Below, piece after piece: positions 31,678 through 39,469 of a stretch of DNA of 64,000 nucleotides (position 1 is the first letter of the stretch; each line of letters starts with the position of its first letter). The notes under the pieces are model-generated. The model saw nothing but the letters and a program-made list of their open reading frames with translations. It did no database searches and was not told where the DNA came from. Source of the stretch: Candidatus Helarchaeota archaeon (GTDB taxonomy: Archaea > Asgardarchaeota > Lokiarchaeia > Helarchaeales > RDOG01); NCBI GenBank assembly GCA_019058315.1, contig JAHPZH010000001.1, positions 1,329,432 through 1,393,431 of the forward strand, given 5' to 3'. The position numbers were made by a program, and so were the translations under genes.

Positions 31678-32949
31678 ATGAGTGGGGATGAAGAAATTGA
31701 AATTGGGGTTAAAGAATGGAATAAATACCATACATATTTAATAATTTTCTTTTCTATTATGAATTTTTTTGGTTTATTCAATATCGTTTTTGGAGGTTTT
31801 GTTTTAAATGAAGTTGCACAATCATTTGGAGTCAGCGTTGTAATAATCCCCATTATTTCTTCAATTGCAGGTATTGGGCTATTTTTTTCAATTATTACTA
31901 GAACCTTACCAGACCATTTTGGCCGTAAGAGAACATTATTTGTTTTGACGATTTTAGCGTATACAAACCTATTTATTACTGTATTAGCCCCCAATGTTAT
32001 TATTTATACTATATTTGGAATTACAGGTAATATGTTAGCCTCAAATACTGCTACAGTGATTATCTCTGAAGAAATTCCCGCAGATTATCGAGGGACTGCG
32101 GTTGGTCTCGTCCAAGGGATTGGAATGACTGCCGCCCCTTTTTCAGCTTTTATATCAATCTATGCAGGAGGTTTTGATGTATGGAGATATATCTATCTAA
32201 TAGTTAATATACCAGCAATCATTATTTTTACGATTCTTTGGTTTTGGTTAAGAGAACCAGAACGATATCTCCAAGAAAAGAAAATACGAGAAGAAACAGG
32301 TGAGGATAAACCCAGTATATTTGCGGTTTTTCAACACAAATATTTGAAAACCTTTCTTATGAGTTCAATATTATTATTTATGACACAGTTCATCTATTTA
32401 ACAATCAAACGTTATTTCAAACCATTTCTTATTAATGAAAGAGGACATTTGGGATTTAATAATGCCACAGTTGGGTTCTGGATGATTTTTATATATATAG
32501 GGTCCATTTTAGGGTATTATTTATCAGGTTATTTAGCGGATCGTCTTGGTAGACGACTTTCAATTTATATCACTGCATCTTTATACTTTATTTTTAATAT
32601 TACCTTCGTAATTTCAGGAACTATGTGGGGTATTCTCGTTAGTTTTTTTGGTCTCAATTTGAGTTTTTCGATTTTCATGATTGTAGCTACGATATATTCT
32701 TTTGAATTTTATTCAACAAAAGAGCGTTCTACAGGTTCTGGATGGGTTCAAGTTCTTGGAAATTCAGCATGGATTTTTGCTAACTTGGTGATTTCTATTT
32801 TTGTATATTCTTTGAATTTTACATGGGGTGAAACATTCCTAATTTTATGTTTTGCACCGATCTTACTAATAATTATTACCTACTTTATGCCAGAAACTAA
32901 GGCTCTCGAATTGGAGATAATTGTTGAAAAATATGTAGAAAAAAAATAA
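31678..32949 (+). CDS. MFS transporter (paralogue 1)
   Basis: 12 TM; PDHFGRKR and ADRLGRR A-motifs; SEEIPA.YRG; MPETK. Confidence 0.92.
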   Translation: MSGDEEIEIGVKEWNKYHTYLIIFFSIMNFFGLFNIVFGGFVLNEVAQSFGVSVVIIPIISSIAGIGLFFSIITRTLPDHFGRKRTLFVLTILAYTNLFITVLAPNVIIYTIFGITGNMLASNTATVIISEEIPADYRGTAVGLVQGIGMTAAPFSAFISIYAGGFDVWRYIYLIVNIPAIIIFTILWFWLREPERYLQEKKIREETGEDKPSIFAVFQHKYLKTFLMSSILLFMTQFIYLTIKRYFKPFLINERGHLGFNNATVGFWMIFIYIGSILGYYLSGYLADRLGRRLSIYITASLYFIFNITFVISGTMWGILVSFFGLNLSFSIFMIVATIYSFEFYSTKERSTGSGWVQVLGNSAWIFANLVISIFVYSLNFTWGETFLILCFAPILLIIITYFMPETKALELEIIVEKYVEKK

Positions 32950-33036
32950 GAAATCAACGCTTTTTAAAAATCTTTAAATAATTTTCCCGAGTCAATCCAT
33001 ATATTATAACATATAAATTAAAGGATTTGTTACCAA

Positions 33037-34296
33037 ATGAGCAATGAGGTAGAAGCTAAAGAATGGATCGGCTACCACACTTACTTGGTAATATTTCTAT
33101 CTATTGTTAACTTTTTTACTCTATTTGGCGTGGTTTATGGAAGTTTGACCATGAATAACGTTGCTAAATCATTTGGTATTAGTGTGACTATAATTCCCTT
33201 GATTACTTCAATCATGGGTATAAGTATGATTTTTTCTATTTTATTTCAAAATCAAGCAGATCGGTTTGGAAGAAAAAAGATAATGTTTATTTTTTATATG
33301 CTAGTTCATATTAATGGATTTTTTCTAGTATTATCCCCCAATATAATTATTTACACTATCCTTGGCTTTATAGGATCAATGTTTGGTGTAAATCTCATAA
33401 ATGTAGTAATTTCAGAGGAAATACCTGCGAGATTTAGGGGAACGATAATTGGTGTTGTCCAAGGTGTTGGTATGAGTGCTTCTGTTTTAGCTGCATTTTT
33501 AAGCTCATTTTTAAGCTTATCACAAAATATGTGGAGATACCTCTTTCTTATTGTAGATGTTCCCGGAACAATTATTTTTTCAGTATTATGGTTATGGATG
33601 AAAGAACCAAAAAGATTCCAAAAAGAAAAGGACATTAAACTAATCGAAAAGAAATCTAGCTCTGGAATTTTCGCTGTTTTTCAACCGAAATATATAAAAA
33701 TATTTGGTTTAAGTTGTTCGTTAGTCTTCTCAGCTTCTTTTATTTATATAACTATCAAGCGTTATTTCAAACCGTTTCTTCTTGATGAGAGAGGTTATTT
33801 GGGGTTTAATGATGCCACGGTTGGGTTCTGGATGATTTTTATATACATAGGGTCCATTTTGGGATATTATTTATCAGGTTATTTGGCGGATCATCTTGGC
33901 AGACGCAAGACAATCTATATTTCTGCATTTATCTATTTCATTTTTAACATTACCTTTGTAGTTATTCAAATTGATTGGGTTATATTTTTAAGTTTGCTTG
34001 GCATTAACACAAGTTTTTCCATATTTTTCATTACAGTAAACATTTATGCAGTAGAATTTTTTTCAACAGAAGAAAGAGCTACGGGATTGGGTTGGATAAT
34101 GATAATAGGAAACTCTCCATGGATTTTTGGGAATTTACTTATTAGTCTCTTGCTTGGTTTAGGACTTTCTTGGGGTGCAGTTTTTCTTATTTTCTCATTT
34201 TTTCCAATTCTACTAATTATATTGACAAAATTAATGCCAGAAACCAAAGAGTTAGTATTAGAAGATATTCATAAAAAATTTGTAGAAAAGAAATAA
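33037..34296 (+). CDS. MFS transporter (paralogue 2)
   Basis: ADRFGRK, ADHLGRR, SEEIPARFRG, MPETK; colinear with the upstream gene. Confidence 0.92.
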   Translation: MSNEVEAKEWIGYHTYLVIFLSIVNFFTLFGVVYGSLTMNNVAKSFGISVTIIPLITSIMGISMIFSILFQNQADRFGRKKIMFIFYMLVHINGFFLVLSPNIIIYTILGFIGSMFGVNLINVVISEEIPARFRGTIIGVVQGVGMSASVLAAFLSSFLSLSQNMWRYLFLIVDVPGTIIFSVLWLWMKEPKRFQKEKDIKLIEKKSSSGIFAVFQPKYIKIFGLSCSLVFSASFIYITIKRYFKPFLLDERGYLGFNDATVGFWMIFIYIGSILGYYLSGYLADHLGRRKTIYISAFIYFIFNITFVVIQIDWVIFLSLLGINTSFSIFFITVNIYAVEFFSTEERATGLGWIMIIGNSPWIFGNLLISLLLGLGLSWGAVFLIFSFFPILLIILTKLMPETKELVLEDIHKKFVEKK

Positions 34297-34372
34297 TATT
34301 AGATAAATAATTGTTTTCTTATTCTAATTTTAATAAATTAATATTTTTTAAATAAAAAGGAGATTTTATACA

Positions 34373-35755
34373 ATGGAGACTGAAAAACCAAGTTTTACCA
34401 AGCGAGAGAAAACTTATTGGAGTTTAGCAGCTATATCTTCTGCTGTACCATATCAAATGTTTAGTGCTTATATTTTTTATTTTTATGAGACTGTACTTAA
34501 TCCCGGCTTGCCTCCAATTTATGTAGCTTTAGGATTAGTAATTTGGAGTATATGGAATGCTTTAAATGACCCATTACTCGGTTACGTTTCAGATCATACC
34601 AAAACTAAAGAGGGAAGGCGTATACCATATATCAAATATGGGACAATCCCATTTGTTATTATATTCTTTTTAGTTTGGATTCCACCAGGTGCTGATTTAA
34701 TTGTTGTATTTATTTATTTTTTAACAATGATTTTATTATTTGATACTCTTTATACAATGGTTATATTAGGTTGGACTTCATTATTTCCAGAAATGTATAA
34801 AACACATCAGGAAAGAGTAGAAGTCACAGGAATGAGACAATTTTTTACCTTAATTGGAGCGATACTAGCATATGTAGTTCCATCATTTTTACCTAATGTA
34901 GATCCAGTTCCCTGGATAATGGTTGGTTTGTTCTTTACTATTATTACCGCAGTGTTTCTTTTTATTTCTTTAAAAGGGAGTAGGGAAGATTTGGCATATC
35001 AAGATGAGGGAGCATTAGGATTCAAAGAAACTTTTACTGTCTCATTAACTAATAAATCTTTTCTCACCTTTGTTTTTACTCATTTATGTATCCAATATGG
35101 TCAAACTCTACTTACTTCTGCCTATCCATATTATAGGGACTATGCTTTGAAAATTCAGCCTGAAAATCTTCTTGGGGGAATTATATTATTATTAGTATTT
35201 GTTTATGCAATTCTCACTATTCCTCTTTGGGGAAAACTAGGACAAAAATATGGTAACAGGAAATGTTGGATTTTTGGTTTGATAATTTCGATCTTTTCAC
35301 TTCAAGCATTTTGGTTCACTGCACCTTTAATTTTACTCGTATTAATATTTCCATTGGGTTTAGGACTTATGTCACAATTATTTTTTATGGATAATATAAT
35401 AGCAGACATAGTAGATGAAGATGAATTGAAAACAGGACTCCGTAGGGAGTCCACGTATTTTGGAATGAACGCATTTGTGATGAGATTGGCTGTCGCTTTT
35501 CAAGCACTAACACTCGGAATTACTTTACAATTAACTCAAGGATTTGAATTAGTTCTTAGTCTTCCTAGTAATACTATCAGGTTAGTTCTTACAGGTTCAA
35601 CTGAGTTCTGGATAACATTTATTATGGCCATCCCAACAGCTATAGCTTTGGGGATTGGAGTTCTAATTATGAAATATTATCCTTTACATGGAGATTATCT
35701 AATCGATGTTAAAAAAAGAGTTAAAGAATTGCATGAAAAGAAGGGAACAGAATAA
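34373..35755 (+). CDS. GPH family (MelB-like, MFS_2) glycoside/cation symporter
   Basis: WNALNDPLLGYVSDHTKTKEGRRIPY, SLFPEM, ADIVDEDELKTGLRRE..YFG. Confidence 0.92.
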   Translation: METEKPSFTKREKTYWSLAAISSAVPYQMFSAYIFYFYETVLNPGLPPIYVALGLVIWSIWNALNDPLLGYVSDHTKTKEGRRIPYIKYGTIPFVIIFFLVWIPPGADLIVVFIYFLTMILLFDTLYTMVILGWTSLFPEMYKTHQERVEVTGMRQFFTLIGAILAYVVPSFLPNVDPVPWIMVGLFFTIITAVFLFISLKGSREDLAYQDEGALGFKETFTVSLTNKSFLTFVFTHLCIQYGQTLLTSAYPYYRDYALKIQPENLLGGIILLLVFVYAILTIPLWGKLGQKYGNRKCWIFGLIISIFSLQAFWFTAPLILLVLIFPLGLGLMSQLFFMDNIIADIVDEDELKTGLRRESTYFGMNAFVMRLAVAFQALTLGITLQLTQGFELVLSLPSNTIRLVLTGSTEFWITFIMAIPTAIALGIGVLIMKYYPLHGDYLIDVKKRVKELHEKKGTE

Positions 35756-35817: not shown

Positions 35818-36066
35818 TCATTTATAATTTTTAAGCACTATAAACGTATTTATTTCTATAATCCCATCAATAGGATCAATTTTTTCAACTATTAAATCAT
35901 TTATAACCTCGATATTTTCAGCTTGAATCTCTATCATTAAATCGTACATACCTGCAAGATGAGAAATTTGTTTTAATTCGGAAATTTGCTTCAAACTATT
36001 TATAACTTTTTGAGTATAACCCATTTTTAATTTAATAACAGAATATGCTTCTATCAATTTCATCAC
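35818..36066 (-). CDS. Stand-alone Lrp/AsnC ligand-binding (RAM) domain protein, no HTH
   Basis: AYSVIKLKMG...V...LKQI.EL......GMYDLMIEI...I..IDGI.EINT.IVL; overlaps the upstream gene by 4 nt (ATGA). Confidence 0.88.
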   Translation of the reverse strand: MMKLIEAYSVIKLKMGYTQKVINSLKQISELKQISHLAGMYDLMIEIQAENIEVINDLIVEKIDPIDGIIEINTFIVLKNYK

Positions 36067-37499
36067 TTTTTTACTTCAAATTCTATTAAGTTTTCCATAT
36101 CCAATATACTATCTAATTGCTTTAATTTTTCGATAAAATTCTGTAAAAGATAATTACTTTGGAAAAATGTTCTTATTAAAACGTTATATTTACCTGATAT
36201 AGTTTTCAACTCAATTATATTTGGATTATATTTCAATCTATTGATTAAATCATTCAGTCTATTTGACTTAACTTTAAGAAATATAATTGATTTTAAGCTA
36301 TTTTTTTCATGATAATATCGTAACAGAATGGTTATTGATAATATGATAATTGCCATGCTCAATAATATTAGATCATATCTAACTCCTTCGTTACTAATAA
36401 CAAAACCAACAAAAATCGATGTAAAAGGTTCAAAAACCGCAAGAATTGCAACCCATTGGTCCCATTTTAGACGGCGTGAAGGCCAATTATTTTGACTTGA
36501 AAAATAAACAATATAAGGAATGATTGTGCTCTCAATTCCTAGAACCCAAGTCCAGATATTAAAAATTATTGCAGGAAAATTTTGATATTCAAGAAGAAAA
36601 TTTTTTATTTCAATTCCAATTGTAGTTGATTCTAGAGGCAAAATTTCAATGATCAAAGAAAAAATGATAAGTCCCAAGAAGCTTGACAGGAAAAAAAAGA
36701 AAATTTTTACAATTGATTTTGTAAGTTGAAAGTTTGTATTTTTATCACGAAATCCAAGAATTCTTTCTTTCTCATAAGCTGTAAATTCATCAAATCCGGA
36801 TATTATGATAAATAATACCCAGAAAATTAAAGTCATGCCTAAAGCAATGAACCCATAGAAGCTGGCTTCACTATTAATTGTTAGAGGAGTACTTATTATC
36901 GTTAGAACACCAGCAATAACAAATAAGGACAAATATGAGAATTTAATAGAGTCCATATACTCCAATCTTCTGCTTAAATTCCATAAAGCCACTATAATTA
37001 TTGACCCCACTGTATTTAATATGGCTGAAAAGATTATCCCTAGAATTTGATAAGCTTTAAAGTAAAAATAGATACTTACGACATAAAAGATGCCTAATGA
37101 AAAATAATATACCAAATAAGGAATTCGAGATTTTCTTTTAGATGTCAAAATTCCACTTAAAGGAAGATTACTCGTTATTTGTTTTTTAAAATCTTGAAAT
37201 GAATATTGAAACCAACTCCATTTTCCTTTTCTATTATATAATGATGAAAGAATGAGTGATATAAATATGAAAAAGAACGCTCCAATAATTGAAAGTAATG
37301 TTCTCATAAATGCTACCATTAAGATGGAGTTTAAAGTTTCGTTAAGATATAAAAATGGCCATGGGATTAATCCCCACATTATCGTAGTTATTAAAATTGC
37401 AATAAAATTTACCTTTTTCTTAATCGAGATTAATGATAAAATCAATAATATTACGGTAATTATATTAAAAAACACTAATGAGCTAAAATCGTCTATCAT
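36063..37499 (-). CDS. EamA/DMT-family transporter fused to a C-terminal Lrp/AsnC (RAM) domain
   Basis: EamA repeat 1: ITTIMWG...AFMRTLL...YFYFKAY. Repeat 2: LGIESTIIPYIVYF...AILAVFEPFTSIFVG..ISNE. C-terminal SIIFLKVK...PNIIELKTISGKYNVLIR RAM pattern. Confidence 0.75.
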   Translation of the reverse strand: MIDDFSSLVFFNIITVILLILSLISIKKKVNFIAILITTIMWGLIPWPFLYLNETLNSILMVAFMRTLLSIIGAFFFIFISLILSSLYNRKGKWSWFQYSFQDFKKQITSNLPLSGILTSKRKSRIPYLVYYFSLGIFYVVSIYFYFKAYQILGIIFSAILNTVGSIIIVALWNLSRRLEYMDSIKFSYLSLFVIAGVLTIISTPLTINSEASFYGFIALGMTLIFWVLFIIISGFDEFTAYEKERILGFRDKNTNFQLTKSIVKIFFFFLSSFLGLIIFSLIIEILPLESTTIGIEIKNFLLEYQNFPAIIFNIWTWVLGIESTIIPYIVYFSSQNNWPSRRLKWDQWVAILAVFEPFTSIFVGFVISNEGVRYDLILLSMAIIILSITILLRYYHEKNSLKSIIFLKVKSNRLNDLINRLKYNPNIIELKTISGKYNVLIRTFFQSNYLLQNFIEKLKQLDSILDMENLIEFEVKK

Positions 37500-37640: not shown

Positions 37641-38408
37641 CTAGGACTCCCAGCCGATCTTATTTTTAAACCATTCAGGCATAGAAAAGCAGACATACAT
37701 TATTATAGTAGATGCTAATAGAACAAATAAAGAAATTGCAAAAATTGGAATTAACATTACAAGATAGGTTGATCCAAAACAAGTTAATGCTATTCCCATC
37801 CATAAAGATAGGTTGGATTTTGGTCTATTTTCTTCACGGATCTTTGAAGCAAAATAAAAGAAAATTATTGGACCAACAAAAAAATTCGGTAGAACATATC
37901 CAGTATAAAAATAATTAACAATGGGATCATAAGCTAATATAAATCCTTTAACCTCTGCATATGGAGGTCCTAATATATTTGCATAAATTATTAATAGAAT
38001 AGCTATTATTCCTAAAATTGTTACTATTATTATTAATTTATTCTTTTTATCTGGATATGTCATAATCAAAGCAAAATTATCAAGACTAATAATTGCAAAA
38101 ATACTGAAAGACAATGCAATAATCGACATCAATCTACCAAAATCGGGTTGACCTAGAGTAGTATAACTTATATTTTCTATAATCATAAATATTACAGCTA
38201 TTTCTGTAAATAAAAACGCAAATAACATTGATAAGGTAGTTTTTTCTTTAGTTTTTCTATATTTTTTAAATAAATTCACTATAATTAGAGTCGATACACC
38301 CAATATAATAAAAATTAGGTAAGGAACTATAAATCCGGATGGATCTCTATTGCTAAAGTACCCTGTTAATTGGTTTAAAGTAAATTCAATTGAATAAATT
38401 AATCCCAT
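37641..38408 (-). CDS. 7TM membrane protein without cytoplasmic output domain (paralogue 1)
   Basis: Seven hydrophobic helices ending MPEWFKNKIGWES. Confidence 0.8.
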   Translation of the reverse strand: MGLIYSIEFTLNQLTGYFSNRDPSGFIVPYLIFIILGVSTLIIVNLFKKYRKTKEKTTLSMLFAFLFTEIAVIFMIIENISYTTLGQPDFGRLMSIIALSFSIFAIISLDNFALIMTYPDKKNKLIIIVTILGIIAILLIIYANILGPPYAEVKGFILAYDPIVNYFYTGYVLPNFFVGPIIFFYFASKIREENRPKSNLSLWMGIALTCFGSTYLVMLIPIFAISLFVLLASTIIMYVCFSMPEWFKNKIGWES

Positions 38409-38701: not shown

Positions 38702-39469
38702 TTAGGACTCCCAGCCGATCTTATTTTTAAACCATTCAGGCATAGAAAAGCAGATATACATTATTATAGTAGATGCTAAAAAAATAGACAAAGGAATTGC
38801 TAGAATTGGAATAACTATTAACAAATAGCCCAATCCAAAACAAGTTAATCCTATTCCGATCCATAAAGATAGATTAGATTTTGGTCTATTTTCTTCACGA
38901 ATCTTTGAAGCGAAATAGAAGAAGATTGTAGGACCAATGATAAAGTTTGGTAAAATTAATGAGAAAATAAAATAGCTAATTATAACATCATATATTAATA
39001 AAAATCCTTGAATATATGAATACGGATATCCTAACGTATTTGCAAAAATTACCAATAGAATGGCTATTATTCCTAAAATTGCCACTATTATTAATATTTT
39101 ATTCTTTTTATTTGGATATGTCATAATTAAAGCAAAATTATCAAGATTAATAATTGCACAAGTAGTGAAAATCATATTAAGCACCGACATCATTTTACCT
39201 AAATCGGGTTGACCTAGAATAGTATAACTTATAGTTTCTATAACCATACATATTGCAGCTAATTCTGTAAATAAAAATGCAAGTGCCCATGATAAAGTAG
39301 AATTTTCTTTAGTTGTTTTATATTTTTTAAATAAACTCAATGTACTTATAGTCGCTACTACCAATATTGCGAGAACTAGATAATAAACTATCACTCCTGA
39401 TGGATCTCTATTGTTAAAGTACCCGGTTAATTGGTTCAAAGTAAATTCGATTGAATAAATTAATTCCAT
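38702..39469 (-). CDS. 7TM membrane protein without cytoplasmic output domain (paralogue 2)
   Basis: Same length (255 aa), near-identical N-terminus and identical C-terminus relative to 37641-38408. Confidence 0.8.
   Translation of the reverse strand: MELIYSIEFTLNQLTGYFNNRDPSGVIVYYLVLAILVVATISTLSLFKKYKTTKENSTLSWALAFLFTELAAICMVIETISYTILGQPDLGKMMSVLNMIFTTCAIINLDNFALIMTYPNKKNKILIIVAILGIIAILLVIFANTLGYPYSYIQGFLLIYDVIISYFIFSLILPNFIIGPTIFFYFASKIREENRPKSNLSLWIGIGLTCFGLGYLLIVIPILAIPLSIFLASTIIMYICFSMPEWFKNKIGWES

Follow-up and report, generated by a model that had tools for sequence, protein, structure and literature searches.

We analysed a stretch of 64,000 nucleotides (hereafter the window) from the genome of a Candidatus Helarchaeota archaeon (GenBank assembly GCA_019058315.1, contig JAHPZH010000001.1, positions 1,329,432 to 1,393,431 of the forward strand), in which two overlapping genes on the minus strand encode a membrane carrier that ends in a RAM domain of the Lrp/AsnC type and a small, free RAM protein. 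The larger open reading frame (36063-37499) specifies 478 amino acids, comprising an extra N-terminal transmembrane helix that is specific to its subfamily (residues 4 to 27; 37419-37490), a ten-helix core of the drug/metabolite transporter (DMT) type (residues 31 to 399; 36303-37409), the junction LRYYHE, which leads from the last transmembrane helix (TM10) into the first strand of the following domain (residues 393 to 398; 36306-36323), and a fused, cytoplasmic RAM domain (RAM1; residues 402 to 478; 36066-36296). The free RAM gene occupies 35818-36063 or 35818-36066, depending on its start codon. On balance, we favour the reading that the pair forms a two-gene module, i.e., a DMT secondary carrier with a built-in cytoplasmic metabolite sensor that would switch transport.

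The two genes meet at AAAAAGTGATGAAA, where the larger one ends in a TGA stop codon (36063-36065). The free RAM gene could start at a GTG (36066; 82 amino acids, with a 4-nucleotide overlap, GTGA) or at an ATG (36063; 81 amino acids, with a 1-nucleotide overlap, TGATG, in which the A is shared with the stop codon), and alignment with 24 orthologues favoured the ATG start and the 81-amino-acid product. An earlier first-pass annotation of this DNA, made from the sequence alone, had described an ATGA overlap; the genes do overlap, but the letters differ from those given. Contigs from an independent study spanned the junction (X2 record 9, covering 35993-36195, and X3 record 12, covering 35869-36306), and no insertions or deletions were seen in any run.

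The membrane carrier and its fold

The AlphaFold2 (AF2) model of the 478-amino-acid protein (pLDDT 79.7, pTM 0.78) contained eleven membrane helices followed by a β-α-β-β-α-β domain. When this model was run with VIA-align against 48,161 chains, it matched eight DMT structures with Z scores of 15.3 to 21.3 over 248 to 303 residues. These were SLC35B1 (21.3), TPT (19.5), PfCRT (19.2), LicB (19.0), YddG (5i20; 17.0), Vrg4 (16.4) and two entries of the CMP-sialic acid transporter (6oh4, 15.9, and 6i1r, 15.3). The aligned region ran from about residue 23 to 33 up to about residue 400, placing the modelled helix 4-27 outside the DMT core. Foldseek agreed on the DMT fold, with target-normalised TM-scores of 0.55 to 0.65.

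A sequence-profile search of the PDB with a profile of 18 orthologues returned RAM matches only and no DMT or other membrane chain, and the DMT assignment therefore had to come from the fold search. The first-pass annotation had described the protein as an EamA/DMT transporter. The DMT fold bears this out, but the Pfam EamA model (PF00892) gave no match to the window protein itself at E ≤ 1. The same model matched 26 of 31 family members at E ≤ 0.01 (best 6.8e-10), and the matching relatives were clearly homologous to the window protein (profile E 1e-35 to 1e-51). One member, P0031, lay above both Pfam gathering thresholds, scoring 28.8 bits for EamA against a cut-off of 28.2.

In the predicted loops, 19 lysine and arginine residues fell on the inner side and 2 on the outer side, which places the N-terminus outside and the RAM domain in the cytoplasm; both ends of the DMT core are likewise cytoplasmic. 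The invariant or nearly invariant columns of the joint alignment (A2) included R66, T325, P328, Y329, W339, W349, P358, R394, H397, E398 and G436. Within the core, R66 is located in TM2, T325, P328 and Y329 in TM8, and E357-P358 in TM9, with an acidic residue (E or D) at position 357 in 27 of the 31 sequences. The polar and charged residues kept within the membrane (R66, E/D357, T325 and Y329) argue, as far as an alignment can, for a working carrier. In the LRYxHE junction, R394 and H397 were nearly invariant and E398 was invariant in both subfamilies of the carrier (described below). The last helix of the AF2 model ends at residue 399 and the RAM strand begins at residue 402, and given this short, conserved connection, movement of the RAM module should reach TM10.

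Fused and free RAM domains

The first-pass annotation had assigned the C-terminal ~77 amino acids of the carrier to a RAM domain, and this assignment was confirmed by structure and sequence alike. Residues 398 to 478 of the window model aligned with RAM structures in the VIA-align run at Z scores of 12 to 14 and root-mean-square deviations (rmsd) of 1.4 to 2.1 Å, including 1ri7 (Z 14.1, rmsd 2.0 Å, 80 residues) and the stand-alone RAM protein 2zbc (Z 13.4, rmsd 1.4 Å). A carrier profile built from 18 orthologues (A1) matched the RAM domain of FL11 (PH1519) at E 2.3e-6. The Pfam model PF01037 matched residues 407 to 469 with 24.5 bits, slightly below its cut-off of 25, and was found in 27 of the 31 carrier-family members.

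The free RAM protein scored 48.5 bits with PF01037, and a profile of 25 of its orthologues matched FL11 (E 1.7e-16), DM1 (1.6e-11) and STS042 (5.2e-11). No helix-turn-helix (HTH) family matched either protein of the pair, the free RAM protein being a RAM domain only. The folds, the PF01037 matches and the lack of an HTH match thus bore out the architecture that had been proposed, namely a DMT carrier with a fused RAM domain next to a free RAM protein that has no HTH. An apparent hint at lysine as the ligand was rejected: the top NCBIfam match of the free RAM protein, LysM, reached 32 bits against a cut-off of 180 and was barely above AsnC, and the similarity to FL11 concerns general RAM motifs.

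In Grp, the amino group of the ligand is bound by D102 of the G99-x-x-D102 loop and its carboxylate by T132 and T134 of the neighbouring dimer, and these residues have been called conserved family-wide (PMC2504300). At the corresponding positions of the G-x-x-D and T-x-T motifs, the free RAM orthologues had G in 25/25, D in 23/25, and T or S in 23/25 and 25/25 sequences, respectively. Among the fused RAM domains, the first motif was also retained (G in 31/31, D in 27/31), but nearly all had I, V or L at both threonine positions. The fused and free RAM domains are therefore not equivalent, since the T-x-T half-site is lost in the former and kept in the latter, a difference that the first-pass annotation had overlooked. 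Across 24 matched pairs, the carrier core reached a mean pairwise identity of 37.5% and the fused RAM domain 31%, whereas the free RAM protein, with 47%, is the most conserved part of the system.

Distribution, gene linkage and neighbourhoods

A word-based search found 22 homologues of the carrier with 49 to 81% identity, all about 480 amino acids long, and the named members among them all came from Helarchaeota, Lokiarchaeota or Hodarchaeota metagenome-assembled genomes (MAGs). By a six-frame profile search of Asgard genomes, the carrier family was present in 77 of 400 genomes of the phylum. Four genomes from the order of the window carry a close subfamily. The distant subfamily, with proteins of 435 to 460 amino acids (21 to 28% identity), lacks the extra helix, begins at about profile position 30 and extends through the end of the RAM domain; it was found in families f5 (6 of 14 genomes), f6 (60 of 135), f7 (3 of 4) and f9 (3 of 3). 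The RAM domain is kept in both subfamilies, and the module is widespread in Lokiarchaeia. When 1.84 billion representatives were searched exhaustively with HMMER, 59 clusters reached E ≤ 1e-30; their named members, including GC-rich ones, were Promethearchaeota, with P0039 as the sole exception. Four longer proteins, P0081 (692 amino acids), P0089 (829), P0091 (1238) and P0153 (618), matched the DMT core alone (E 1e-10 to 1e-28). In these, several hundred extra residues without a confident Pfam match replace the RAM domain, and their DMT core may be joined to other cytoplasmic or extracellular modules.

Pairing was surveyed by running a hidden Markov model of the small protein over the loci, supplemented with a genome search for four apparent exceptions. 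In 39 of 41 loci (38 of 40 genomes), drawn from several Asgard families, the free RAM gene was the immediate same-strand neighbour of the carrier gene; the two-gene arrangement, which the first-pass annotation had proposed to check, is thus conserved. It usually lay 10 to 40 nucleotides downstream of the carrier gene, overlapped it in the window and in L001 and L031, and was located upstream of it at three loci in two genomes of family f5 (L029/L040 and L041). The linkage has thus been kept, whereas the gene order has not. Translational coupling by overlap, another proposal of the first-pass annotation, is not conserved, as most relatives have the gaps mentioned above. Genome G134 carries two paralogous modules, L041, with its free RAM gene upstream, and L042, in which a 476-amino-acid carrier with a long acidic C-terminal tail is followed by two free RAM genes (80 and 97 amino acids).

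Natural fusions join all parts of the module in a single chain. P0039, a protein of 541 amino acids, consists of the carrier with RAM1, a 30-residue linker and a second RAM domain (RAM2; 59.6 bits with PF01037), and a 99%-identical copy was present in a second sample. The fragment P0088 runs from TM10 and RAM1 through a linker of ~110 residues to RAM2; Pfam recognized two RAM stretches in it, and its RAM2 resembles the first free RAM protein of L042. The AF2 model of P0039 (alignment A5; pLDDT 88.1, pTM 0.84) had both RAM domains above 80 and a disordered linker. Residues 350 to 539 of this model superposed on residues 61 to 312 of the siroheme decarboxylase NirDL (4czc_A) with a Z score of 16.5 and an rmsd of 2.4 Å over 156 residues, compared to 75 aligned residues for the single RAM domain of the window model, indicating that the two RAM domains of P0039 simultaneously fit the pair of RAM-like domains in NirDL. 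The pairing of fused and free RAM domains, which the first-pass annotation had put forward, gained support from the two fusions and from this NirDL-like placement. Together with the conserved adjacency, they make hetero-pairing well supported, and we infer that a physical RAM1-RAM2 heterodimer forms in the window organism.

P0039/P0171 (MBN8215563.1) is GC-rich and carries the NCBI label of a 'Spirochaetes bacterium' MAG; its closest relatives are Asgard proteins (37 to 42% identity), and the label could mean that the sequence was wrongly binned or that the gene has left the Asgard archaea by transfer. No locus was recovered when metagenomes were scanned with P0039. Tandem RAM domains also occur apart from carriers: P0094, P0115 and P0162 are soluble proteins of 170 to 186 amino acids with two RAM domains and no HTH, each amounting to a covalent RAM dimer. 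P0156 (336 amino acids) combines a response-regulator receiver domain with RAM domains in one chain, a further instance of RAM outside the Lrp-type DNA-binding proteins.

In Lokiarchaeia, the pair is flanked by a lysine fermentation cluster, in which KamA, KamB, KamE and KDD scored above the NCBIfam cut-offs and KamD was assigned by Pfam PF09043. Ornithine-oxo-acid transaminase, carbamate kinase and ornithine carbamoyltransferase, all above NCBIfam cut-offs, were also found in these flanks. The transaminase and carbamate kinase were present in 7 of 20 loci with 8-kb flanks, from four genera, although these counts are not independent because the genomes are related. In genus g24, an operon for a 2-oxoacid:acceptor oxidoreductase flanks the pair on the same strand. 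Two Lokiarchaeial genomes have a 991-amino-acid glycyl-radical enzyme of the PFL2/glycerol dehydratase family (L045, 4636-7611, minus strand) and a methylmalonyl-CoA mutase (L049, 5208-6881, plus strand) near the pair, and these add to the anaerobic catabolic character of the neighbourhoods. The Lokiarchaeial neighbourhood points to basic amino acids. We take an amino acid to be the probable substrate, perhaps a basic one in Lokiarchaeia. Regarding the direction of transport, for which the first-pass annotation had assumed export, the catabolic neighbours in Lokiarchaeia suit export no better than uptake or exchange.

The neighbours are different in the window, where three MFS transporters and two 255-amino-acid membrane proteins surround the pair. 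The MFS genes (31678-35755, plus strand) converge on it and encode two paralogues of 423 and 419 amino acids (MFS_1/Sugar_tr) and one protein of 460 amino acids of the MFS_2 type; L048 and L050 also have an MFS_2 homologue (cluster c17) close to the pair. The 255-amino-acid proteins are paralogous multi-helix membrane proteins encoded upstream on the same strand as the pair (37641-38408 and 38702-39469, minus strand). Both terminate in MPEWFKNKIGWES, and a Pfam search with the two gave no match. We rejected these genes as operon members of the pair, since the adjacency is not kept in relatives. Two close relatives have as the next gene a member of the isopropylmalate/homocitrate synthase family that scores below the equivalog cut-offs.

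Proposed mechanism, alternatives and known systems

In the mechanism that we propose, TM10 would run through the rigid, conserved LRYxHE junction into the degenerate RAM1, and RAM1 would pair with the separately encoded, canonical RAM2 in a sheet-to-sheet dimer of the Lrp/AsnC type. RAM2 would bring the intact ligand residues, with the G-x-x-D loop holding the amino group and T-x-T the carboxylate, while the role of RAM1 would mainly be that of a tether, holding the ligand-competent free RAM protein under the carrier. The most likely effect of an intracellular amino acid would be to help form, or to stiffen, contacts among the RAM1-RAM2 heterodimers of adjacent carriers, and the resulting RAM movement, relayed via TM10, could favour or block the alternating-access cycle. 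As the canonical ligand pocket sits between RAM dimers, it would probably require two heterodimers, and with them two carriers, to come together. We also offer, tentatively and as something that may well prove wrong, a fuller version in which the RAM module acts post-translationally on the carrier and amino-acid-dependent assembly of heterodimers from neighbouring carriers clamps or releases TM10. In that version, the free RAM protein might additionally shuttle to Lrp-type regulators, coupling the state of transport to transcription, and the module would represent a new class of ligand-gated secondary carriers that is largely confined to Asgard archaea.

Several points weigh against a sensor-gated carrier of this kind. 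A single RAM heterodimer per carrier cannot alone build the canonical inter-dimer pocket, and the proposal has to assume a higher assembly. The motifs of the window pair fall short of those in the family at large: RAM1 has GKYN at G-x-x-D and M-E-N at T-x-T, and the free RAM protein keeps G-x-x-D as GMYD but has I-N-T instead of T-N-T, the first threonine being replaced. In two genomes of family f7, the carrier has no adjacent free RAM gene. As to the structural evidence for pairing, the alignment of RAM2 in P0039 was shallow, as a result of MAFFT placing the free RAM rows on RAM1, and AF2 may pack tandem ferredoxin-like domains in this way by default. Finally, the Lokiarchaeial substrate clue is not transferable to the window genome, which has no such lysine or ornithine catabolic genes: the alpha subunit of lysine 5,6-aminomutase (KamD) was not found in this genome (94% complete) or in three genomes of the close subfamily, with G188 as the positive control, and no ornithine aminotransferase or carbamate kinase scored above the cut-offs in the window genome.

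Alternatively, the output of the pair could be mainly gene regulation, with the membrane protein holding or releasing the free RAM protein according to the state of transport or ligand, and the released protein joining full-length Lrp/AsnC oligomers to alter transcription. There is a precedent in DM1, a stand-alone RAM protein that enters hetero-octamers with full-length FL11 (PMC2995911), and the free RAM profile lies nearest to the RAM domain of this same regulator (E 1.7e-16). Candidate partners exist as well, with 13 PF01037 matches in the window genome, several in open reading frames of the size of HTH-RAM regulators, and bacterial EamA transporter genes are often under Lrp-type control (PMC8707732). 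We nevertheless think such a transceptor or sequestration switch unlikely, because the covalent carrier-RAM1-RAM2 fusions would bind the presumed messenger to the membrane for good and the strict one-to-one adjacency is more in keeping with an obligate partner than with a shared messenger. Similarly improbable, in our judgement, is a purely structural role, in which RAM1 and the free RAM protein would serve to dimerise or stabilise the carrier during assembly, oligomerisation or insertion, with no regulatory ligand. RAM is the oligomerisation domain of Lrp proteins, and some archaeal Lrp proteins are believed not to bind amino acids (PMC2995911); the loss of T-x-T from RAM1 and the partial erosion of both motifs in the window's own pair would be in line with this. 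However, the ligand-backbone residues of the free RAM protein are almost invariant across deep divergence (G, D and the second T/S, at the counts given above), and its higher conservation compared to the carrier core and RAM1 is hard to reconcile with a mere spacer.

The subunits of a sensor could also be arranged differently, with RAM1-RAM1 homodimers formed between two carriers and free RAM dimers docking onto them to complete ring-like assemblies. The pockets would then combine the G-x-x-D loop of RAM1 with T-x-T of the free RAM protein, and the distribution of motifs, with RAM1 keeping just G-x-x-D and the free RAM protein keeping both, is what would be expected of complementary half-sites between unlike dimers (geometry from PMC2504300); the two free RAM genes at L042 in the G134 lineage would also suit this arrangement. 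We regard it as less likely still, given that the AF2 model of P0039 shows RAM1 and RAM2 in the intradimer arrangement and that its 30-residue linker suggests tight pairing of the two domains within the chain. Hardly credible, in comparison, is the view that the 478-amino-acid protein is an Lrp/AsnC transcriptional regulator, as public records have it, or that the fusion is an artefact of assembly or gene calling. The 81%-identical orthologue P0002 is named 'Lrp/AsnC family transcriptional regulator' at NCBI and P0028 'DNA-binding Lrp family transcriptional regulator' at JGI, but the domain content, with no HTH and with eleven membrane helices across residues 1 to 399, refutes this identity. 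An artefact absent from relatives, as had been considered for the fusion, is ruled out by its presence in all orthologues of ~480 amino acids and in 77 of the 400 Asgard genomes, and by the independent contigs that cover the locus without indels.

The DMT carriers are among the largest transporter superfamilies, and in the module a secondary carrier would be switched directly by a metabolite, a form of control not known to have been described for the DMT class. Considering its spread in Lokiarchaeia beside lysine-fermentation and ornithine/citrulline genes, it may control the amino-acid traffic of a fermentative lifestyle, such as cultured Asgard archaea are reported to lead. Work on RAM domains has dealt almost entirely with those of transcription factors. 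For stand-alone RAM proteins, whose role was called unclear in a review (PMC2995911), the module offers a concrete and testable role. Public annotations that name these membrane proteins transcriptional regulators need correction.

When compared with the 10-TM DMT carriers (bacterial YddG/EamA-type amino-acid exporters, LicB, plastid TPT and the SLC35 nucleotide-sugar transporters), the window protein shares the ten-helix fold over nearly the full solved chain (Z 15 to 21), but its subfamily adds an eleventh, N-terminal helix and a long basic loop between TM2 and TM3, and the Asgard family as a whole bears the C-terminal RAM domain together with its free RAM partner. We know of no characterised DMT carrier with a cytoplasmic ligand-binding domain or ligand sensor. 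A full-text literature search likewise brought up no account of a RAM domain on a DMT carrier, consistent with the first-pass annotation, which knew of no characterised case of this architecture.

Parallels in logic are found in other transporter classes. In the methionine ABC importer MetNI, a small C-terminal ferredoxin-like C2 domain halts transport when the transported amino acid binds to it within the cell (trans-inhibition). The logic is that of the proposed Asgard switch, but MetNI has its domain on an ABC ATPase subunit and not on a secondary carrier, the domain is ACT-like and not RAM, and there is no separate partner gene. Two further parallels had been drawn by the first-pass annotation. 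In MthK, the regulatory RCK domain exists both fused and free, the free copy arising from an internal start of the same gene, and in the GlnK-AmtB pair a soluble sensor docks onto a membrane transporter; the folds, the ligands (Ca2+ and ATP/2-oxoglutarate, respectively) and the transporter classes all differ from those of the Asgard pair. Siroheme decarboxylase NirDL/AhbAB (4czc, 4czd), in which two RAM-like domains are paired within one chain, is the best structural match of RAM1 plus RAM2 of P0039, but it is a soluble enzyme with HTH-like domains and no transporter, and no functional link is implied.

The RAM assemblies of Lrp/AsnC proteins and the stand-alone RAM proteins (FL11 and DM1 of P. 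horikoshii; STS042 and Grp of S. tokodaii) have the same fold as the Asgard domains (rmsd 1.4 to 2.1 Å), and the Asgard free RAM protein retains their G-x-x-D and T-x-T ligand-backbone residues. The hetero-octamers that DM1 forms with FL11 (PMC2995911) are a precedent for a free RAM protein mixing with the RAM domain of a larger protein. Unlike the Lrp/AsnC proteins, the Asgard pair has no DNA-binding domain, one of its partners is anchored in the membrane, and the tethered RAM domain lacks T-x-T. In bacteria, the same two families are linked in another way, as an Lrp/AsnC regulator controls an adjacent EamA gene, e.g., PA2577-PA2576 (PMC8707732). There, control is transcriptional and exerted via the HTH, whereas the Asgard carrier has the sensor domain as part of its own polypeptide chain.

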